NCBI GenBank assembly: GCA_019244185.1
Contig: JAFATB010000005.1
Coordinates: 64,001 to 128,000, forward strand
DNA length: 64,000 nucleotides
Reading direction: 5' to 3'
From: Acidobacteriota bacterium
Lineage (GTDB): Bacteria > Acidobacteriota > Thermoanaerobaculia > Gp7-AA8
The notes under the pieces were generated by a model, which saw only the letters and a list, made by a program, of their open reading frames with translations, was not told the DNA's origin and did no database searches. Position 1 is the stretch's first letter, and every line of letters starts with the position of its first letter. This document shows, piece by piece, positions 43,771-53,498 of this stretch. Position numbers and translations under genes: made by a program.

Positions 43771-44720
43771 TCGGCACCTCGATGCGCGAGCGAGCCGAGG
43801 AAGAAGGCGACGAAGGCGAAGCCGAGCGCCCACTGGTAGCGATCGACCGGCACGCGCGCAACGGTCTCGCGCGCCTTCGCCACGCGCGCGCTGCCGAGGA
43901 GCGGATCGAGCGCGTGCGCCGCGAACGGGTTCTCCAGCATCGTGCCGCCGGTGCCGTTTGCGATGTCGCGCAGGACGTCGCCGCGCGCGTAGGTCGTTAC
44001 GACGTCGCCCGTCGCATCGCGCAGCGGCCCGTGTCCGGTCGGAATCGTGGCGCCGTTCGCGGAGCCGAGGAGGATCGTCGACACGGGCACGCCACGCGTC
44101 TTCGCGCGCTGCACGGCTTCGGCGACGCGCGCTCCTTGTTCCTCGCCGTCGCTGATCAGCACGAGATCGGCTTTTTGCGAGGGATCGCTGTCGATGAGGC
44201 GGAGCGAGCCGAGGATCGCGCTGCCGAGGTCCGAGCCGGGCTCGCCGACCTCGCCGGCCTGCAGCGTGTCGACGAGCGCGAGCACCGCGTCACCGTCGCT
44301 CGTGAGGGGCGAAACGACTTCCGGCTCTGACTCGAAGACGACGAGCCCGATCCGTCCTTCCTGCGCGTCGATGAGCCGCTTCGCGATCGCTTTGGCCGCG
44401 TCGAGGCGCGAGGCACCGACGTCTTCGGCGGCCATGCTGTTCGAGACGTCGATGAGGATGACGCGATTCGCTTCGCGCGCGACGACCGGCATCAGCGTGT
44501 AACCGGCGTACGGCCCCGCAAGCGCGACGACGGACGCGGCGAGCGCGACGCCGAGGAGCCACGGACGCAGCGCGCGCGCGGGCATGGTCACGCCGCGCAG
44601 ACGCTCGCTCGCGAAGCGCCGCGCGAGGCGAATGCGCGTGCGCTCGCGCGTCACGAGGAACAGCAGCGCGAACGGCACGAGCGCGAGGAGCCAGAGCAGC
44701 AGCACGTCGCGGAAGCTCAT
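43767..44720 (-). CDS. BatB-like VWA domain protein
   Basis: DVSNSM MIDAS motif, SRLDAAK and LISDGE. Confidence 0.9.
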   Translation of the reverse strand: MSFRDVLLLWLLALVPFALLFLVTRERTRIRLARRFASERLRGVTMPARALRPWLLGVALAASVVALAGPYAGYTLMPVVAREANRVILIDVSNSMAAEDVGASRLDAAKAIAKRLIDAQEGRIGLVVFESEPEVVSPLTSDGDAVLALVDTLQAGEVGEPGSDLGSAILGSLRLIDSDPSQKADLVLISDGEEQGARVAEAVQRAKTRGVPVSTILLGSANGATIPTGHGPLRDATGDVVTTYARGDVLRDIANGTGGTMLENPFAAHALDPLLGSARVAKARETVARVPVDRYQWALGFAFVAFFLGSLAHRGAE

Positions 44721-45724
44721 GCCGGCACCTTCAGCCAGAGCGTCTCGCCGCCGAGGAGCGACAGCGCGAGCAGCGCGAGCGCGGCACCGAGCGGCCAGAC
44801 GTACAGCTCGTCGATCTGCTCGCGCTTCGGCGCGGTGAGGCGCGTCTTCTCGAGCGCGTCGATGCGCTTGAGCACCGCGCCGAGCGCCTGCGCGTCCGTC
44901 GCGCGGAAGAACGCGCCGCCGGTCGTCGACGCGATCGCTTCCAGCGTCTTCTCATCGAGCTCGCCGCGGATGTGCGTGTAGATCGTCTCGATCGCGCCGG
45001 TGAACGGATTCTGCCGCTTCACCGGCAGCGGCACCGGACCTTCCGAGCCGACGCCGATCGTGTAGACCTTGATGCCCGCGGCGGCCGCGAGTTGCGCGGC
45101 GACGAGCGGATCGATCGAGCCGGAGTTGTTGACGCCGTCCGTCACGAGGATGACCACGCGGCTGCGCGTCTTCGAGTTGCGCAGGCGGTTGACGGCCGTG
45201 GCGAGCGCGTGGCCGATCGCGGTGCCGTTGCCGTGCTCGCCGATCTCCGCCTTCGCGAGCACGGCTTCGATGATGCGGCGGTCGTACGTGATCGGCACGC
45301 GCGTCGCCGCGCGGCTGCCGAACGTCACGATGCCGATGCGATCATCGGTGCGGCGGCGGATGAAGTCGCCGATCAGCTCTTTCGCGACGGCGAAGCGGTT
45401 GCGCGGACGAAAGTCTTCCGCGGCCATGGAGCCCGAGGCGTCGAGCGCGACGACGATGTCGATGCCGTAGCGGTCGCTCGCCGCGAGGCGCACCACGCGC
45501 TGCGGACGCGCCAGCGCGACGACGAGCAGCAGCATCGCCAGCGTCTCCAGTGCGAACGGCAGCGCCGCCGTCATGACACGCAGTCCCGGCGCCGGCGCGA
45601 CGAGCGCGAGCGACGAGTAACCGAACGCGCCGACGCGCTGCCGCCGGTCGCGGACCACAAGCGCGACGCGCGCGGCCACCGCAAGCGCGAGCGCGAACCA
45701 CAGCGGATCAGCGAAACGCGTCAT
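44717..45724 (-). CDS. BatA-like VWA domain protein
   Basis: LARPQ, DASGSMAAEDF, GTAIG, VTDGVNNSG and IKVYTIGVG motifs. Confidence 0.92.
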   Translation of the reverse strand: MTRFADPLWFALALAVAARVALVVRDRRQRVGAFGYSSLALVAPAPGLRVMTAALPFALETLAMLLLVVALARPQRVVRLAASDRYGIDIVVALDASGSMAAEDFRPRNRFAVAKELIGDFIRRRTDDRIGIVTFGSRAATRVPITYDRRIIEAVLAKAEIGEHGNGTAIGHALATAVNRLRNSKTRSRVVILVTDGVNNSGSIDPLVAAQLAAAAGIKVYTIGVGSEGPVPLPVKRQNPFTGAIETIYTHIRGELDEKTLEAIASTTGGAFFRATDAQALGAVLKRIDALEKTRLTAPKREQIDELYVWPLGAALALLALSLLGGETLWLKVPA

Positions 45725-46467
45725 GCCGCCCGCTCCGTCGCAGCGATCGGCGGCGGCTCCGGCGGCGGAATGAGCGCCAGCGCGTCCGCAGCCACCGCAT
45801 CGAAATCGCGCTCCTCGGCGCCCGACGTCGAGAACTTTTCGAGATCGCCCTGCCGCAGGATCATGGCGACGGCGTCGCGCTCGTCGCCGAGTCGCGGCAG
45901 CAGCTCGCTCGTGGTCAGCTCGCGGCCGAGTCCCGCACGCGTTGCCGCGAGAAACACGCGCGTCTCGTCGGCGAGGCGCGACCAGCGCAACGGCTCGAAC
46001 GGATGCGCGCGCAGCGCGTCGATCGCGCGGCGGAAACGCTCGTCCGGCGGCAGCGCGGGAACCGTTGCAGCCATCGTCTGCTTCGCGCGACGCCACACGA
46101 GCAGCCAGACGCCGAGCGCGCAAAGCGCCGCGATCGCGATCGCGACGAACGGCAGGCGCGGATACGCCGTCGCGCGCGGCGGCGCGAGCGGCGCGGGCTT
46201 GCGGTCGTCGTTCGGCTTCAGCACCGAATGCATCGGCACGACGAGGTTGCGAAAGTGCACGCCGCGCACGACGCCGCTGAGCGCGAACGGTTTCGGATCG
46301 AACGTGCGCACCACGACGTCCGCGCCGCGCTGCGACACGATCTCGTACGCGGGCGAGGCGTCCAGCGTCACCGGGCCGTCGAAGTGGATCGCGATCGGAT
46401 CGCCGACCGTCGGCGCGGCCGGTTGAAACGTCGCGGTGATCGCCAGTGCGAGAACGGGAAGGATCAT
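45721..46467 (-). CDS. Membrane protein of the MoxR/Bat operon (DUF4381-like)
   Basis: Signal peptide, TM, ELTTSE and DLEKF; translationally coupled on both sides. Confidence 0.75.
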   Translation of the reverse strand: MILPVLALAITATFQPAAPTVGDPIAIHFDGPVTLDASPAYEIVSQRGADVVVRTFDPKPFALSGVVRGVHFRNLVVPMHSVLKPNDDRKPAPLAPPRATAYPRLPFVAIAIAALCALGVWLLVWRRAKQTMAATVPALPPDERFRRAIDALRAHPFEPLRWSRLADETRVFLAATRAGLGRELTTSELLPRLGDERDAVAMILRQGDLEKFSTSGAEERDFDAVAADALALIPPPEPPPIAATERAA

Positions 46468-47369
46468 GCCGGTCGGTGCTGGCGCGCGCTCCGCTCGCGG
46501 AAGAAGCGCAGCAACGCGCGGTCGTAGGGAACAGCCGTGGACACGGCGAGGTGATCGATGGCCGACGCGCGCAGCCGACGCTCGAGCTGCGTGCGCCGCA
46601 GCGCGCCGCTTTGCGCGACGCCGGAACGCCGCAGATCGACGAGGCGCGCGCCGCCGCTCTCGAGATCGACGAGCCGCGCCAGCCCGCGGTCGGGAAAGCG
46701 CTCCTCGCGCGGATCGACGATCGGCACGGCGATGACGTCGTGCTTGCGGTTGAGGCGCTTGAGCGGCCGCTCGAACGCGATTTCGAGAAAGTCCGACAGC
46801 ACGAGCACGACCGCGCGCTTCACCGCGACGCGTTCGAGAAACCCCGCGGCGAGCTCGAGGTCCGCGCGCCCGTGCGGCCCGCGCATGGCCGCGTCCACCG
46901 CCGCGCGCACGAGGACTTGCGCGTGCGCTCGTCCGCGCCGCGGCGGGATGTACGCGCGGATCGCATCCGAGAACAGCAGCAGCCCGACGCGATCGGAGTT
47001 CTCGACCGCGGAGAACGCGAACACGGCCGCGAGCTCCGCCGCGAGATCGCACTTGCGCCAGTCCACCGAGCCGAACGCCATCGAGCCGGAGACATCAACC
47101 GCGATGAGGATCGTGAGGTCGCGCTCTTCGATGAACTCCTTGACGTGCGGCACGCCGCTGCGCGCGGTGACGTTCCAGTCGATCGTGCGGATGTCGTCGC
47201 CGGGCAGATACTCGCGCACCTGCGAGAACTCGATGCCGCGGCCGTGAAACGCGGAGTGGTAGTCGCCCGCGAAGCCCGCGCGGATCATGCGCGCCGAGAC
47301 GAGCTCGAGGTCGCGCACGCGCCGCACGACCGGCGCGCGCAGGTCGGGAGTCCGGCGCCGGAACCTCAC
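46464..47369 (-). CDS. DUF58 domain protein
   Basis: GRGIEFSQVREYLPGDDIRTIDWNVTAR, DVSGSM and LSDF motifs. Confidence 0.95.
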   Translation of the reverse strand: MRFRRRTPDLRAPVVRRVRDLELVSARMIRAGFAGDYHSAFHGRGIEFSQVREYLPGDDIRTIDWNVTARSGVPHVKEFIEERDLTILIAVDVSGSMAFGSVDWRKCDLAAELAAVFAFSAVENSDRVGLLLFSDAIRAYIPPRRGRAHAQVLVRAAVDAAMRGPHGRADLELAAGFLERVAVKRAVVLVLSDFLEIAFERPLKRLNRKHDVIAVPIVDPREERFPDRGLARLVDLESGGARLVDLRRSGVAQSGALRRTQLERRLRASAIDHLAVSTAVPYDRALLRFFRERSARQHRPA

Positions 47370-48340
47370 GGCACCGCGACCGCTCCCAGGATCTGGTCGA
47401 GGATGCGATCGGCCGGCATCTGCTCCGCCGCCGCCTCGTAGCTGAGCACGAGCCGGTGCCGCAGCACGTCGTGAGCGACGGCCTTGACGTCTTCCGGCAC
47501 GACGTACGTGCGCCCGCCGAGGAACGCGTGCGCTTTCGCAACGTGCGCGAGCGCGAGCGTGGCGCGCGGAGACGCGCCGAACGAGATCAGGTTTGCCAGC
47601 GACGGCAACCGAAAGTCTGCCGGCCGGCGCGTGGCGTTCACGAGCTGCACGATGTACCGGCCGATGCGTTCGTCGGTGTGCACGCTCGCCGCGAGTTTCG
47701 CGACGCGATGAATCTCGTCGATGCCGAAGACGCGCTGCACGCCGACGCTCTCGCGCGTCGGATCGAGATACAACCCGAGCATCCGCAGCTCTTCCTCCGC
47801 GCTCGGATACTCCACCTTCAGCTTCATCACGAACCGATCGACCTGCGCCTCGGGTAACGCATACGTTCCCTCGTGCTCGATCGGGTTCTGCGTGGCGATC
47901 ACGACGAACGGATCCGGCAGCGCGTACGACTGATCGCCGATCGTCACCTGCCGCTCCTGCATCGCCTCGAGCAGCGCGCTCTGCACTTTCGCCGGCGCGC
48001 GGTTGATCTCGTCGGCGAGGATGAGGTTCGCGAAGACGGGGCCAAGGCGCGCGTTGAACGTGCGGCCGGCGGGATCGAAGATCTGCGTGCCGGTGATGTC
48101 GGCGGGCAGCAGATCGGGCGTGAACTGGATGCGCTTGAACGTGGCGTCGAGCGCCGACGCGAGCGTCTTCACGAGCAGCGTCTTGGCGAGGCCGGGCAGG
48201 CCTTCGACGAGCACGTGGCCGCGGATCAGAATGGCGATGAGCAGACGGTTGACGATCGCGTCCTGCCCGATGACGACGCGCCCGACCTCGGCGCGCAGCC
48301 GCGCAAGCGTCTCATGAGCCTGTTCGGTGGCTTCCTGCAT
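47366..48340 (-). CDS. moxR: MoxR family AAA+ ATPase
   Basis: GLPGLAKT, RIQFTPDLLPAD, DEINRAPAKVQSALLEAMQE and ATQNPIE motifs. Confidence 0.96.
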   Translation of the reverse strand: MQEATEQAHETLARLRAEVGRVVIGQDAIVNRLLIAILIRGHVLVEGLPGLAKTLLVKTLASALDATFKRIQFTPDLLPADITGTQIFDPAGRTFNARLGPVFANLILADEINRAPAKVQSALLEAMQERQVTIGDQSYALPDPFVVIATQNPIEHEGTYALPEAQVDRFVMKLKVEYPSAEEELRMLGLYLDPTRESVGVQRVFGIDEIHRVAKLAASVHTDERIGRYIVQLVNATRRPADFRLPSLANLISFGASPRATLALAHVAKAHAFLGGRTYVVPEDVKAVAHDVLRHRLVLSYEAAAEQMPADRILDQILGAVAVP

Positions 48341-48366: not shown

Positions 48367-49146
48367 GTGCGCCCGAAGAAAAAGTGGGGTCAAAACTTTC
48401 TCCGCAATCGCGGCGCCGTGGCGAAGATCGTCGAAGCGGTTGACGCACAGCCGGACGAGGTCGTGCTCGAGATCGGCCCCGGCGAAGGCGTGCTCACCGA
48501 AAAACTGGTCGCGCTGCCGAATCCGCTCGTCGCCATCGAGATCGATCCCGAGCTCGCCGCGCGACTGCGCGCGCGTTTCGGCGAGCGGCTGACGCTGCGC
48601 AACGAGGACGCGGTCGACGCTCCGCTGCCGGAGACGCCGTATCGCGCCGTCGGCAACCTGCCGTACAACGTCGGCACGCCGATCCTCCGCCGCGTCATCG
48701 CCGACCCGCACTGCCGCCGCGCGGTGTTCATGCTGCAGAAGGAAGTCGCGGACCGCGTCGTGGCCAAGCCCGGCAGCGATCCGTACGGCTATCTCACGCT
48801 GTACGTCGCCGCGTTCGCGAGCGCGCGCATCGCCATGACGCTCGATCCGCGCTCGTTCCATCCGCCGCCGAAAGTACGCAGCGCCGTGGTCGTGCTCGAC
48901 CCGCGCGATCCGCAGCTGGCCGCCGAGCGCACGCTCGTACTCGATCTCGTCAGCGCGTCGTTCCGCATGCGCCGGAAGAAGCTGGTCAACAACTTGACCG
49001 GTTGGCGGAACCTCACGCGCGAGGACGTGCTGTCCTTGATGCAGCGCGCTGCCATCGACCTCGACGTCCGCGCGGAGACGATGTCGCTCGCCGACTTCGA
49101 CCGCTTCGCCGTCGCCTACTCCGCGCTCGCGTCGCCCGGCTCGTAG
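48367..49146 (+). CDS. rsmA: 16S rRNA m6,2A1518/1519 dimethyltransferase
   Basis: KKWGQNFL, LEIGPGEG, GNLPYNV, MLQKEVA and FHPPPKVRS motifs. Confidence 0.96.
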   Translation: MRPKKKWGQNFLRNRGAVAKIVEAVDAQPDEVVLEIGPGEGVLTEKLVALPNPLVAIEIDPELAARLRARFGERLTLRNEDAVDAPLPETPYRAVGNLPYNVGTPILRRVIADPHCRRAVFMLQKEVADRVVAKPGSDPYGYLTLYVAAFASARIAMTLDPRSFHPPPKVRSAVVVLDPRDPQLAAERTLVLDLVSASFRMRRKKLVNNLTGWRNLTREDVLSLMQRAAIDLDVRAETMSLADFDRFAVAYSALASPGS

Positions 49147-50174
49147 CGCCACTCCGTCTCATGCTTCGCCCCCTCGGCGAACCGTGGGTCGACGTAGTCC
49201 TCGAACGCGATGTCATGGTCGAGCACTCCGGTCTCGCGCATCAGCCGGACGATCAGCTCGAAGTCTTTGCGCAGCGGCGTGAGCGGCTGGTACTGCACGC
49301 GTTCGAGCGGCTTCGTCAGCGCCCACTTGAGCAGCTTCGGATCCTGGCGATAGTAGAAGCGGCCGACGAAATCGGCGGCGTGCTCGCGGCGCGCGCGGCG
49401 CTTCGGCGGGTTCTCGAGCCACAGTCCCGACCGCGCGATGCCGTCGACGAGCACCTGCACCGCCTCCGGCCTGCGGTCGATGACGTCCTGCCGCACGACG
49501 AGCACGCAAGAGATGAAGTCCGGCCAGTACTGCCGCGCGTGGAAGAGCACGCGCCCGAAGCCAGCCGACTCGGCCTGCGACGGATACGGCTCGCCCATCG
49601 AGAACGCGTCGATTGCGCCGGCCGCGAGCGCGCCGGCGACGTCCGGCGGCGCCATCTCGACAAGCCGCAGGTCGCGCGCGCTCATGCCGTTCGCCGCCAT
49701 CGCGCGGAAGAGGATCAGCCGCTCGTCCGAGTAGCGGCTCGGCACGGCCACAATCCTCCCTTTCAGATCGGCGAACGAATGCACCGGTCCGTTCTTCTGC
49801 ACGACCACGGCGCTTCCGTAGCGGTGTCCGAGGTAGACGATCTTGATCGGAACGCCCTGAGCACGCAGGGCAATCGCCATCGGCGCGACCATGAACGCCG
49901 CCTGCATCTGGTTCGAGATCAGCGCTTCCTTGATCTCAGGGAACCCCTGGAACATCCGCGGAATGAACAGATGCCCCGACTTCGAGTAGGCGGAGATGTA
50001 GTCGGTGACCGGGCACGCGAGGTGTCACGTGACCGGGATGTAGGCGACGTTGAGCTTGCGCTCGCGTTCCGGCAATCGATCGTTGAGCAGCACCTTCCAG
50101 TCGACGTTCATCGACAGGTGCGCGGCAGTGATGAACGCCAGCCATGCGGCAACGGCGACTCCGATCTTTCGCAC
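49116..50174 (-). CDS. NitT/TauT-type ABC transporter substrate-binding protein with an in-frame TGA at codon 50 (putative selenoprotein)
   Basis: AGGAGGAG SD + GTG 50174; N-terminal hydrophobic anchor; ...AYIPVT-TGA-HLACPVTDY... continues in frame into track ORF 49116..49955 (SsuA/NrtA-like; GEPY, ISCVLVV). Confidence 0.8.
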
Positions 50175-50196
50175 GCGACTCCTCCTTTCGTTCGTG

Positions 50197-50973
50197 TCAT
50201 TCGTGAAATGCCCAGCGCACCGCGCGCAGCGTCTCGGCGCGGCGGATCAGCGTGTCGAGAATCAGTCCGAGCAGGCCGATGAGCAGCATGCCGCCGACGA
50301 CGAGGTCGTAGCGCTTGCCGGCGTTGCGCGCGTCGATGATGAGATAGCCGAGCCCCGAGTCGACGGCGATCATCTCCGCCGCCACGAGCACGAGCCACGC
50401 GACGCCGAAGGCGATGCGCAGCCCCACCAGAATGCGCGGCAGGATCGCGGGAAAGAGCACGCGCGTGATGAGCGCCCGCGTCGAGAGCCCGAAGTTGCGC
50501 CCCGCCTGCACGTACATCGGCGGCACGTTGCGCACGCCGTTCATCGTGGCCACGATGATCGGGAACACCGAGGCGAGGAAGATGAGGAAGATCGGCGCGA
50601 GATTGCTGACGCCGAACCAGATCACCGCGAGCGGCATCCACGCCAGCGGCGAGATCGGCCGCAGCATCTGAATGACCGGATTCGCCGCGCGCGCGAGCGA
50701 GCTCCACCACCCCATCGCCAGGCCGACCGGAATCCCGATCGCCACCGCCGCGAGATAGCCGCACGCAACGCGGAACAACGAGTCGCCCATGTACGCCCAC
50801 AGCAGTTTTCGTCGTGCGAGCTCGAGCAGTCCGCGCACGACGTCCATCGGCGAGGGAAAGATCTTCGTTCCGCTGACGACGACGGCGAGCGCCCAGAACG
50901 CGAGCAGCACGAGGCCGAGCACGACCGCACGGATGCGTCCTTCTGCCCTCTGCCTTCTGCCTTCTGCCTTCAT
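50197..50973 (-). CDS. NitT/TauT ABC transporter permease
   Basis: LRPISPLAW, AGRNFG (EAA-like), VAAEMIA and GLGYLI motifs. Confidence 0.93.
   Translation of the reverse strand: MKAEGRRQRAEGRIRAVVLGLVLLAFWALAVVVSGTKIFPSPMDVVRGLLELARRKLLWAYMGDSLFRVACGYLAAVAIGIPVGLAMGWWSSLARAANPVIQMLRPISPLAWMPLAVIWFGVSNLAPIFLIFLASVFPIIVATMNGVRNVPPMYVQAGRNFGLSTRALITRVLFPAILPRILVGLRIAFGVAWLVLVAAEMIAVDSGLGYLIIDARNAGKRYDLVVGGMLLIGLLGLILDTLIRRAETLRAVRWAFHE
50941..50970. repeat. Tandem heptamer (TTCTGCC)x~4 in the permease 5' end
   Basis: ttctgcc-ctctgcc-ttctgcc-ttctgcc-tt; encodes KAEGRRQRAEG. Confidence 0.75.
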
Positions 50974-51704
50974 ATCTGATGCGCCAGCCCGATCTCCCCG
51001 AAGATCTCATCGCGCAACGCGATGTATCGCGGATCGCTGAGATCGCGCGGATGCGCGAGATTCACGTCGACGACGCGCCGCACGCGTCCGGGCCGCGCTG
51101 ACAGCACGACCACGCGGTCCGCGAGCTGCACCGATTCCTCGATGTCGTGCGTCACGAAGAGAATCGTCTTCCGCTCCGCCTGCCAGATCCGAAGCAGTTC
51201 GCGCCGCATCTGCAGGCGCGTGATGGAGTCGAGCGCGCCGAACGGCTCGTCGAGATAGAGCACGTCGGGATCGACCGCGAGCGCGCGCGCCACTTCGAGC
51301 CGCTGCTTCATGCCGCCCGAGAGCTCGCGCGGATACGAACGCTCGAATCCCTGCAGGCCGACGAGCTGCACGTACCGCGCGATGCGCGCGCGCTTCTCGT
51401 CGTCCTTTTGGCGAAAGAGTCCGAAGCCGATGTTCTCTTCGACCGTGAGCCACGGAAAGACGCCGCGCTCCTGAAAGACGAAGATGCGCCGCGGATCAGG
51501 TCCCGTCACCGGCTCGCCGTCGATGGTGACGCGCCCTTCGGTCGGCGTCACGAATCCGCCCACGATGTTGAGCAGCGTCGACTTGCCGCAGCCAGAGGGG
51601 CCGAGGATGCAGACGAACTCGCCTGCGTTGACCGAGAGGTTGATGTCGTCGAGCACGCGCACGCCGCCGAAGCGCATGCCGATCGAGTCGAAGTGAACCT
51701 TCAT
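50970..51704 (-). CDS. NitT/TauT ABC transporter ATP-binding protein
   Basis: GPSGCGKST, LSGGMKQR, LDEPFGALD and FVTHD motifs. Confidence 0.95.
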   Translation of the reverse strand: MKVHFDSIGMRFGGVRVLDDINLSVNAGEFVCILGPSGCGKSTLLNIVGGFVTPTEGRVTIDGEPVTGPDPRRIFVFQERGVFPWLTVEENIGFGLFRQKDDEKRARIARYVQLVGLQGFERSYPRELSGGMKQRLEVARALAVDPDVLYLDEPFGALDSITRLQMRRELLRIWQAERKTILFVTHDIEESVQLADRVVVLSARPGRVRRVVDVNLAHPRDLSDPRYIALRDEIFGEIGLAHQI

Positions 51705-52456
51705 TCCGCGGCGTACCCCCAGCGCACGGATGGCAGCCGTTCGAGCCGGCGCATGAGCAGGTCGAGGCCGATGCCGATGAGACCGATGAGCACCATGCCG
51801 GCGACGACGAGGTCGTAACGGTTGCCGGCATTGCGCGCGTCGACGATGAGAAAGCCGAGACCGGAGTTCACCGCGATCATCTCCGCGGCGACGACGACCA
51901 GCCACGCGATGCCGAGCGTGATGCGCATGGCGACGATGAGCTGCGGAAGGATGCCGGGGACGACGACGCTCCGCACGAGCTCGGCGTGCGAGAGTCCGAA
52001 GTTGCGCCCCGCCGCGAGATGCACGCCTTCGAGGTTGTGCACCGCTTCGACCGTCGCGGTCGTCAGCGGCAGCACCGAGGCGAGGAAGATCAGGAAGATC
52101 GCCGCCGCGTCGCCGACGCCGAACCAGAGGATGCCGATCGGAATCCACGCGAGCGGCGAGATCGGCCGCAGGATCTGCAGGATCGGATTGACCGCGCTGT
52201 CGCCGCGTCGCGAGAGGCCTAACGTGACGCCCGCGGGCACCGCGACGGCGACCGCCGCAAGGTAGCCCCACGTCACGCGGAAGAGCGAGGCCACGACGTA
52301 GCGGACGAGGAGCCCTTTCTCCGCGAGCTCGCCGATCGCGCGCAACGTTTGCCACGGCGTCGGCACGAGCGTGCGCGGCGAGGCCGCGACCGCGAGTTGC
52401 CACGCGGCGACCGCAACAGCGATTCCCAGCAATGGAAGGAGTCGTTTCAGACGCAA
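51701..52456 (-). CDS. NitT/TauT ABC transporter permease (second paralog)
   Basis: LRPISPLAW, AGRNFG and VAAEMIA; clearly paralogous to 50197..50973. Confidence 0.93.
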   Translation of the reverse strand: MRLKRLLPLLGIAVAVAAWQLAVAASPRTLVPTPWQTLRAIGELAEKGLLVRYVVASLFRVTWGYLAAVAVAVPAGVTLGLSRRGDSAVNPILQILRPISPLAWIPIGILWFGVGDAAAIFLIFLASVLPLTTATVEAVHNLEGVHLAAGRNFGLSHAELVRSVVVPGILPQLIVAMRITLGIAWLVVVAAEMIAVNSGLGFLIVDARNAGNRYDLVVAGMVLIGLIGIGLDLLMRRLERLPSVRWGYAAE

Positions 52457-52510
52457 ACTCGGGCGAGAGAGTAGCCGGTTTTGTGACCCCCGTCACGCGC
52501 AGCAAATAAC

Positions 52511-52526
52511 CGGCACCTCGTTTGCT
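52511..52526 (+). promoter_or_regulatory. Putative sigma-54 (-24/-12) promoter of the diguanylate cyclase
   Basis: cGGCACctcgtTTGCt, exact GG-N10-GC spacing, 15 nt before the ATG. Confidence 0.55.
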
Positions 52527-52541
52527 CCGAACGCGCCCTCA

Positions 52542-53498
52542 ATGGCGACCCGCTACGAGACACCCGCACGACGACGGAACGAACTGGAGCCCCCGACTCC
52601 CACGCGCGTTCTCGCCGTTGACGATGACTCCGCTTACCTCCGCCGCCTCGAGGTCGTCCTGACTCGCGCCGGCTTCGACGTCGTGACCGCCTTCGACGGT
52701 CCGACCGCGATCGAGCGCATCCGCGAAGACGGCGACATCGAGATCCTCATCAGCGATCTCACCATGCCCGGCATGGACGGCATCGAGACCGTGCGCCAGG
52801 CACGCACCGCGTGCGCGTTCCCCGGCCTCTACACGATCCTCCTCACCGCGAACGACGGCGCCGACGTGAAGCTCCGCGCGCTCGACAGCGGCCTCGATGA
52901 CTTTCTCACCAAAGCGTCGACCGACTCCGAGATCGTGGCCAAGCTCCGCAGCGCCGCACGACGCCTGGCCATGGAACGCCGCCTCCAGGTCGAAAACGAA
53001 GAACTGCAGACGCTCGCCCTGACCGACGAGCTCACCGGCATCGCCAACCGCCGCGCACTCTTCCGCGCCGCCGAAAGCATCCTAGGCGCCGGCCGCACGA
53101 TGACCGTCGTCCTCTTCGACCTCGACCGCTTCAAGCAGATCAACGACAGCTACGGCCACCTCATGGGCGACCGCATCCTCGCCGACGTCGCCGCCTGCCT
53201 CAAAGCCCACACGCGCGTCGGCGACGTGATCGCCCGCTATGGAGGCGACGAGTTCGTCCTCCTCCTCCCCGACACCCCCACCCCCGAAGCCCGCGCGATC
53301 ACGCAACGGATCCGCGCCAGAATCGCCGCCCTCCGCTGGACCCATTCCGGCAGCGTCATCTCCATCAACCTCGGCACCGGCCTCTCCACGGCCGGCTCCG
53401 CCAGCACCATCGAAACGCTGCTGGCGGAGTCGGACGCAAAGCTGTACGAGGGGAAGGTGGGGAGGCATCAGGAGCTGGATCTTTCGATCCAGCTCTGA
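52542..53498 (+). CDS. Response-regulator diguanylate cyclase (REC-GGDEF)
   Basis: VLAVDDD...ISDLTMP receiver; DELTGIANRR, DLDRFKQIND and RYGGDEF motifs. Confidence 0.95.
   Translation: MATRYETPARRRNELEPPTPTRVLAVDDDSAYLRRLEVVLTRAGFDVVTAFDGPTAIERIREDGDIEILISDLTMPGMDGIETVRQARTACAFPGLYTILLTANDGADVKLRALDSGLDDFLTKASTDSEIVAKLRSAARRLAMERRLQVENEELQTLALTDELTGIANRRALFRAAESILGAGRTMTVVLFDLDRFKQINDSYGHLMGDRILADVAACLKAHTRVGDVIARYGGDEFVLLLPDTPTPEARAITQRIRARIAALRWTHSGSVISINLGTGLSTAGSASTIETLLAESDAKLYEGKVGRHQELDLSIQL

Follow-up and report, generated by a model that had tools for sequence, protein, structure and literature searches.

A probable selenocysteine-containing substrate-binding protein of an ABC importer in soil Acidobacteriota

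Introduction

The 64,000 nt stretch of DNA analyzed here, called the window below, comes from an Acidobacteriota bacterium (assembly GCA_019244185.1, contig JAFATB010000005.1, positions 64,001 to 128,000). On its minus strand, at 49116..50174, a gene for the substrate-binding protein of an ATP-binding cassette (ABC) importer is crossed by a TGA at codon 50. The locus raises a simple question: does this TGA end translation, is it a mutation or an error, or is it read as an amino acid and, if so, which one? An earlier note, made from the sequence alone, had read the locus as a hidden selenoprotein, an ABC substrate-binding protein with a U-x3-C motif, where U is selenocysteine (Sec). This core reading held, being supported by the conservation of the codon, the cysteine column of the homologs, the Sec machinery of the genome, and independent contigs. 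The gene is very probably a genuine selenoprotein gene; selenium insertion itself is what we infer from these data.

The reading frame across the TGA codon

The frame opens with a GTG at 50174-50172, preceded by the Shine-Dalgarno-like AGGAGGAG (50179..50186, read on the minus strand as 50186-50179), whose GGAGG core ends 6 nt 5' of the start codon. The sequence and the coordinates of this strong signal and of the GTG, as proposed in the earlier note, were confirmed on the minus strand. Translation gives MRKIGVAVAAWLAFITAAHL...LNVAYIPVT, then the TGA (50025..50027; TGA 50027-50025), then HLACPVTDYIS... in the same frame, up to the terminal TAG at 49118-49116, for a total of 352 codons and 352 residues with Sec at codon 50. 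The 279-aa open reading frame (ORF) at 49116-49955, listed mechanically, is the in-frame tail of this read-through frame, and there is indeed no frameshift between the TGA and this ORF. Four residues after the TGA comes a cysteine, Cys54, coded by TGC (50013..50015; 50015-50013), so U50 and Cys54 form the U-x3-C motif as had been claimed.

The TGA codon in related genomes

The query for a six-frame search of related genomes was the read-through protein with Cys in place of Sec. Among the 24 other genomes of the same genus, 22 had a full-length match containing exactly one TGA. In one more (G017) two contig ends each carry part of the gene, the TGA being in the N-terminal part, and another (G023) gave a 34-residue fragment only. 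Among the 301 genomes of the class (the window's genome, G000, included), 78 had a match at E<=1e-60; the class scan produced 80 match rows, with one TGA in 48 and no stop in 32.

For the stop-carrying genomes, all of which were fetched from the genus and class scans, we observed TGA at the column PVT*HLxCP in 58/58 cases and TAA or TAG in none. An in-frame TGA found in the same column of all 58 stop-carrying genomes is far beyond chance. The residues flanking it (PVT_HLxCP) were likewise invariant in all 58 genomes, which include four homologs (L065-L068) that belong to two other families of the class and are only 40-49% identical. Twenty of the 25 full-length matches with no stop were fetched, and all 20 had TGC or TGT at the TGA column. 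In the window's own family, the TGA was present in 42 of the 44 genomes with a match; of the other two, one (G128) had a partial match that stops short of the Sec codon, and the other (G176, 81% identity) had TGC at the Sec column. A metagenome scan produced 21 loci, 20 of them covering the codon (TGA in 18, TGT in 2). Finally, full-length database homologs with 70-86% identity had Cys in 27/27 cases, within the invariant string PVTCHLxCPVTD. The alignment of the in-frame UGA to Cys, which the earlier note called the hallmark of Sec recoding, was therefore seen both in the 27 database homologs and in the 20 no-stop loci. The homologs carry Cys at this column and never Trp, or else TGA and never TAA or TAG.

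Three of the genomes used are flagged as unpublished: G024 (which gives L003), G002 (which gives L013), and G030 (a no-stop row only). G156, G191, and G125 enter the SelA tally only, and no conclusion rests on flagged genomes alone.

The TGA-carrying sequences (Sec forms) and the sequences with Cys at this column (Cys forms) are not cleanly separated. Cys forms at 80-86% identity (L116, L120 from G176, and P0002) are nested among Sec forms; therefore, switches from Sec to Cys, or the reverse, have been recent and repeated.

These observations bear directly on the simplest reading of the TGA, a nonsense mutation, a pseudogene, or an assembly error confined to this assembly. Nothing except the presence of the stop codon speaks for this reading, and it is refuted by the TGA in 57 other genomes, in 18 metagenome loci, and in contigs of four runs. 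In four public runs there are contigs over the TGA, and no difference is listed at this codon. A contig from one of these runs, an independent soil metagenome (X4), covers 49876-50174 and has the TGA unchanged, so the codon is not unique to this assembly. In an RNA library (X24), where parts without cover carry no meaning, a relative's contig of 727 nt covers 49908-50109 and has the same TGA, which is not proof of transcription. Synonymous variation is present both upstream and downstream of the TGA, indicating purifying selection on one continuous frame. We regard a local mutation or error as having a negligible probability.

A second reading takes the TGA as a real stop that separates a 49-residue membrane peptide from a separately initiated soluble binding domain of 279-297 aa. 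Such a split agrees with public annotation: database entries of 279-297 aa, with source names in Thermoanaerobaculia or Acidobacteriota, begin after the TGA, the 297-aa proteins starting at residue 56 of the read-through frame. It also agrees with the failure to find a canonical local hairpin of the selenocysteine insertion sequence (SECIS) type. But the frame is kept across the TGA in 58/58 genomes, down to 40% identity, with invariant flanks; the stop is always TGA, and elsewhere Cys stands in its place. Moreover, Sec forms carry an extra constraint at the RNA level right after the TGA, and the truncated product would have neither the first beta strand (residues 42-45) nor the export/anchor helix of the structural model described below. 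A split gene is therefore very unlikely.

The Sec machinery of the genome

The window's genome, which is 98.9% complete, has the full set of genes that the earlier note had named as a check (selA, selB, selC, and selD). We found selA (402 bits), selB (378 bits, above the family cut-off), and one tRNA-Sec with anticodon tca. The selD gene (G000:C6:611614-612546) has an in-frame TGA of its own at the classical GG-U-ACK site. The genome also codes for fdhA (G000:C4, about 575.6-578.8 kb) with the Sec site QARI-U-HSS followed by a canonical hairpin at +15..+33. With these components, the SelA/SelB/SelD/tRNA-Sec system would decode the UGA at codon 50 as selenocysteine.

Across the class, SelA was present in 291 of the 301 genomes, those with Cys forms included. 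Therefore, organisms with Cys forms are also Sec users, and the choice between Sec and Cys is gene-specific. Loss of the Sec machinery, considered as a cause of this choice, was ruled out by the same count.

In principle, a near-cognate or suppressor tRNA could read the UGA through as one of the standard amino acids (Trp or Cys). In favor of this reading, UGA is leaky when a C follows, and a canonical SECIS was not found. However, this genome already uses UGA for Sec at the classical sites in selD and fdhA, SelA is nearly universal in the class by the count just given, and the homologous column is Cys, never Trp. We consider insertion of a standard amino acid highly improbable, and Sec remains the preferred reading of codon 50.

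Protein family, fold, and operon

The read-through protein matched the Pfam family NMT1_2 with 108.1 bits (cut-off 24.7) over residues 37-261; the match therefore crosses the TGA. The score for NMT1 was 62.4 bits against the cut-off of 20.5. An AlphaFold 2 (AF2) model built with 47 diverse homologs had a predicted local distance difference test score (pLDDT) of 96.2 and a predicted template modeling score (pTM) of 0.91. In this model, a hydrophobic N-terminal helix spans residues 2-23 (50106..50171), strand 1 is formed by residues 42-45, and Sec50 is in the loop after strand 1. Cys54 is at the start of helix 53-61, and Cys223 is at the start of strand 223-228. Read-through is thus needed for the N-terminal helix and the first strand, as had been predicted, since the truncated product has neither in the model. 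A first AF2 model, built with 28 close sequences, was poor near the Sec site (pLDDT <50 for residues 40-78) and was replaced.

The best Protein Data Bank match of the model was 3UN6, an ABC binding protein of S. aureus whose structure contains zinc, with a TM score by target of 0.90 and a root-mean-square deviation of 2.0; a profile search gave 3UN6 an E value of 6.5e-28. The fold matches after 3UN6 were SsuA, TauA, NrtA, CmpA, Thi5, and DszB. The protein thus has the type II periplasmic-binding fold, and its gene stands in an operon with permease and ATPase genes. The N-terminal helix, as modeled, is a predicted membrane anchor with no lipobox Cys. We also observed that W11, H19, N23, and W26 (50096-50144), located in or just after this helix, are invariant in 28 sequences. 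This is unusual for a mere signal anchor, and these residues may mark a contact with the permeases.

The operon starts with a permease gene, followed by those for the ATPase, a second permease, and the binding protein, all on the minus strand and with stop and start codons that overlap. The first gene, at 51701..52456, codes for a permease (BPD_transp_1) of 251 aa. The ATPase gene (50970..51704, 244 aa) has its ATG overlapping the stop of this upstream permease in an ATGA. The other permease gene (BPD_transp_1, 50197..50973, 258 aa) ends with a TGA at 50199-50197, 22 nt before the start of the binding-protein gene. Among the related genomes examined, the four-gene operon was intact in L093, L095, and L098 and partial in L094.

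In NCBIfam, the binding protein was below every curated cut-off. Its score was 120.3 bits against 163.5 for the SsuA family (TIGR01728), and 58.2 bits against 300 for SaoX (NF040735), the latter over residues 79-247 only. The best NCBIfam match of the permeases was SaoP (168.6 and 159 against 295), and the ATPase scored 232.7 against 360 for SaoA. From these scores below the cut-offs it follows that the system belongs to the NitT/TauT-type importers and is a distant relative of the SAO transporter, not one of its members. The assignment of the protein to the ABC substrate-binding proteins of the SsuA/NrtA type in the earlier note is borne out by the NMT1_2 match, the fold, and the operon. The protein is the substrate-binding subunit, probably anchored in the membrane, of a four-gene importer of the NitT/TauT type.

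With SsuA, TauA, NrtA, and CmpA the protein shares the fold (TM score by target 0.65-0.81), the Pfam families, and the type of operon; it differs in its score below the SsuA family cut-off. Those proteins have no Cys/Sec/His cluster, and they bind sulfonates or oxyanions without a metal, except for CmpA, which binds with Ca.

The RNA downstream of the UGA codon

The earlier note had proposed a stem-loop just downstream of the UGA (UGCC..CCGACU/AGUCGG..GGCA) as a weak SECIS candidate. This stem does form in the window, but its six inner pairs were all kept in only 4 of 53 distinct Sec forms, so the candidate did not survive comparison. Of its two pairs at synonymous sites, 24/51 holds in 13 of the 53 forms and 27/48 in 34.

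A canonical bacterial SECIS is a local hairpin with its apical loop about 16-37 nt after the UGA. We observed no such element in the Sec forms: within +4..+60 there was no helix of at least 4 pairs kept in at least 80% of the sequences, and RNAalifold of 18 sequences over -3..+66 gave only -3.4 kcal/mol.

The pattern of synonymous change, on the other hand, is specific for the Sec forms. In these, the minority synonymous codon fraction was 0.10-0.12 in windows starting at codons +4 and +40..+56, compared to a mean of 0.25 over the 220 codons examined. In Cys forms, the fraction in windows at +4 and +40..+56 was 0.22-0.34. Synonymous change is thus lowest at codons +4..+12 and +40..+56 in the Sec forms only.

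For 54 distinct Sec forms, RNAalifold predicted a long-range structure with a consensus energy of -31.5 kcal/mol, which joins exactly the blocks with low synonymous change. Its 5' arm, +14..+39 after the U of UGA (49989..50014), where synonymous change is suppressed in the Sec forms, pairs in four short helices with the 3' arm, +126..+152 (49876..49902). A 7-bp hairpin at +156..+175 (49853..49872), with the 6-nt loop CGUGCU, follows and is kept in the Sec forms. The pair 42/135, between the third base of the Ser61 codon and the third base of an Ala codon, was CG in 48 sequences, GC in 2, AU in 1, UA in 1, and UG in 1, and was broken once. In four further pairs one side varies and pairing is kept.

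Overall, 99.2% of the cells were paired in the 54 Sec forms, with no broken pair in 45 of the 54, compared to 75.3% in 20 Cys forms, in which 4-9 pairs are broken per sequence and helix 4 is only 35% paired. Among 16 new metagenomic Sec sequences, unused in the derivation, 15 retain all 29 pairs and one retains 28. Fewer are present in the three Cys forms nearest to the Sec clade (L116, 80% identity, 26/29; L110, 25/29; G176, 81% identity, 25/29). The two nested Cys forms with DNA in hand, L116 and L120 (G176), are each without 3-4 RNA pairs. When the consensus folding energy was computed in sliding windows of 210 nt, the Sec forms reached about -30 only over the stretch after the UGA and stayed at 0 to -8 from +159 onward; in the Cys forms the values were -9 to -18 throughout. 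There is, therefore, an RNA structure downstream of the UGA that is specific for the Sec forms.

We propose, as a possible but still doubtful reading, that this long-range structure (+14..+39 with +126..+152, and the hairpin +156..+175) is the SECIS and would bind SelB. Recoding would then depend on an RNA structure kept in Sec forms only. The 3' partner, about 110 nt downstream, would close the 5' arm and bring the hairpin +156..+175 beside the recoding site.

Several observations weigh against this proposal. Besides the missing canonical local hairpin, the minimum free energy over +4..+48 was alike for 47 Sec forms (-7.25 kcal/mol) and 19 Cys forms (-7.04), and an Rfam search of 49800-50250 at E<=10 gave no match. 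The structure and most of the pair counts come from the same 54-sequence clade; 18 of the 29 pairs never vary, and changes on both sides were seen in one pair only. Shuffle controls overstate the signal because the Sec forms are one related clade, and the window's own 185-nt stretch folds no better than its mononucleotide shuffles (z = -0.7).

The comparison with the SECIS elements of fdhF and fdhA shows both likeness and difference. The fdhA gene of the window's genome has a textbook hairpin GGUGCCC-GGUCU-GGGCACC at +15..+33, and selD has a 9-bp hairpin at +17..+45. The 5' arm described here starts about 13 nt after the UGA, much as the fdhA hairpin does, and the run GUGCCCGGU is common to both. 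However, the 3' partner is about 110 nt away rather than immediately after. Among the distant Sec homologs, the hairpin is local and canonical in L067 and L068 (GGUCACC-AGUUG-GGUGACC, +17..+35, about -19 kcal/mol), while in L065 and L066 it is of medium range, at +14..+58, with the geometry of the stem proposed in the earlier note (-21 and -22 kcal/mol). This would be a SECIS with a fixed 5' arm whose 3' partner has moved in evolution, related lineages using a local or a medium-range hairpin.

The codon just before the UGA, codon 49 (Thr, 50028-50030), also differs between the two forms. It is ACG in 52 of 54 Sec forms; the 20 Cys forms end this codon with C (14), G (5), or T (1). The preference for ACG may be a context effect on recoding.

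A putative ligand site around Sec50

The earlier note had placed Sec50 and Cys54 in a redox-active or metal-binding site. To see which residues go with them we used column statistics of 47 family members. Position 50 was Cys in 18, Asp in 16, and His in 10 of the 47. His117 (codon 49824..49826, LGHR motif) was His in 42 and Cys223 (codon 49506..49508) was Cys in 39 of the 47. The pattern C50, H51, C54, H117, S222, C223 occurred 14 times. Sequences with Cys54 have Ser222 (14 cases), and those with Leu54 have Cys222; in the alternative pattern, Asp or His at 50 and Leu at 54 pair with Cys (or Asp) at 222. It thus seems that one ligand is supplied by either Cys54 or Cys222. Since Cys223 and His117 co-vary with Sec50/Cys54 across the wider family, the site is probably larger than these two residues, and this co-variation favors metal binding over a simple redox pair.

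The closest solved structure, 3UN6, was close in sequence as well as in fold and shares the His/Cys columns. It has His at 50, Leu at 54, HH at 117-118, and CC at 222-223, and it has been described as a zinc-binding protein (PMC13592312, in the part of that text available). According to the same part of that text, a related binding protein associated with carbon monoxide dehydrogenase (CODH) was modeled with two Cys and one or two His as the ligands of a metal, and metal import has been proposed for such transporters in the accessible portion of PMC6344411. From the residue patterns of the family together with the zinc literature on 3UN6, Sec50 is favored as a metal ligand. In the proposed site, Sec50, Cys54, Cys223, and His117 would be the four ligands of a metal in the cleft, a proposal drawn from residue patterns whose chances we judge to be evenly balanced. 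By analogy, the metal would be zinc-like. Sec50 would sit in the strand-1/helix-1 loop, which lines the ligand cleft in this fold class, and the metal would be, with about equal likelihood, the cargo itself or a cofactor gripping a small cargo.

Some facts argue against such a metal site. The usual cargo of NitT/TauT permeases is small anions or organics and not free metals. Neither permease of the operon has a Cys at its gate, and the gene neighborhood at six related loci, where the ABC genes were the sole recurring context, gave no hint of the substrate.

The main competitor concerns the mechanism and not the presence of Sec: Sec50 and Cys54 might be a thioredoxin-like redox pair with no metal, linked as a selenenylsulfide where helix 53-61 begins. 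Such a pair would reduce or covalently capture sulfur, selenium, or another thiol-reactive substrate at the cell surface. In its favor, the U-x3-C motif in the model puts both residues on one face at the helix N-terminus. The fold class also has enzymes with a catalytic Cys (DszB and its C27S mutant are among the fold matches), and most known selenoproteins are redox enzymes, according to the part of the review PMC13188914 that was accessible. However, position 50 is Asp or His in 26 of the 47 members and position 54 is Leu in 21; these residues are incapable of thiol redox, yet His117 and Cys223 are kept. The zinc in 3UN6, the nearest solved structure (PMC13592312, same part), also speaks against it. 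We hold the redox pair to be unlikely, and the metal site remains the favored mechanism.

Flanking genes

The ORFs flanking the operon include an rRNA methylase-like gene, a MoxR/DUF58/vWA set, and a GGDEF regulator. A convergent ORF at 48367-49146 (+) shares 31 nt with the 3' end of the binding-protein gene and resembles RrnaAD (rRNA adenine dimethylase), which is at the syntenic place in L098. Further downstream, at 44717-48340 (-), there are ORFs of the MoxR-type AAA ATPase, DUF58, and vWA/BatA-like kinds, whose names come from synteny with L098. The ABC operon has, directly upstream, the divergent ORF 52371-53498 (+), with a receiver-like N-terminus and a GGDEF motif (RYGGDEFVLLL); a GGDEF protein also adjoins the divergent Sec homolog in L097. 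Genes of the FG-GAP/ASPIC (UnbV) and metallo-beta-lactamase-fold types adjoin the Cys-form operon in L093 (8353-10677) and L095 (12381-14618), two genomes of different families.

Discussion

The closest known parallel is the SAO system, for which SaoB with a CU motif and, in one species, SaoX with TU have been described; the authors stated that no Sec binding protein was known to them before SaoB and SaoP (Haft & Gwadz, bioRxiv 10.1101/2022.07.06.499078, in the portion of the preprint available). SaoX and SaoB resemble the protein described here in being binding proteins of ABC importers, with Sec or Cys clustered in the ligand pocket, and in being usually mis-annotated as truncated; SaoX is SsuA-like too, and SaoP and SaoA are the best or near-best NCBIfam matches of the permeases and the ATPase. 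The differences are also clear. The scores are far under the cut-offs, and Sec is in the strand-1/helix-1 loop (T-U-H-L-A-C) and not in a CU or TU dipeptide. The permeases have no Sec or Cys, and the window contains no SAO neighbors. The nine-gene SAO locus (SaoL, SaoB, SaoE, and others) was not seen at the flanks of the operon, an observation limited to these flanks, as the SAO models were not searched genome-wide. The hosts, finally, are soil Acidobacteriota of the Thermoanaerobaculia type and not strict anaerobes such as Clostridia. Relative to SAO, the binding-protein family, the Sec site, and the hosts are different, and the proposed SECIS is non-canonical.

A second parallel is with 3UN6 and the binding proteins encoded beside clade B CODH genes, with which the motifs LGH(R/H), (S/C)C, and PIT-x are shared (PMC6344411, PMC13592312, as far as those texts were available). 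On the other hand, 3UN6 has His at the Sec column and Leu at the Cys54 column, and a search of the 98.9% complete genome for the CODH/Prismane family gave no match.

In the accessible part of a 2026 review (PMC13188914), the binding and transport selenoproteins named are SaoX, SaoB, SaoP, and BtuF, and that part has no entry for NMT1, PF13379, or a UxxxC selenoprotein. Similarly, the available main texts on BSepDB (PMC13326102) and deep-Sep (PMC12013277) contain no NMT1/SsuA-type UxxxC selenoprotein. Taken in full, namely as a new selenoprotein family in which Sec is a metal-center ligand in an ABC binding protein of aerobic-soil Acidobacteriota, combined with an unusual long-range SECIS whose 3' partner migrates, the proposal is a tentative one and rather doubtful.

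If the long-range structure is indeed the SECIS, it would widen the rules of bacterial selenoprotein finders, since tools that look for a local hairpin would miss this family. In public annotation, these genes are cut to 279-297 aa and lose the anchor and the first strand; as a result, the transporters of a whole clade of soil bacteria are described wrongly, and too few selenoproteins are counted for Acidobacteriota.

Binding proteins seldom contain Sec. Here, a selenium atom would sit in the ligand pocket of a nutrient-binding protein widespread in soil Acidobacteria. Sec replaces the Cys, Asp, or His of the relatives, including 3UN6 and the neighbors of clade B CODH, whose substrate is an open question (PMC13592312, in the part available). 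The natural series of Sec, Cys, Asp, and His at this position offers a handle on what the pocket binds.

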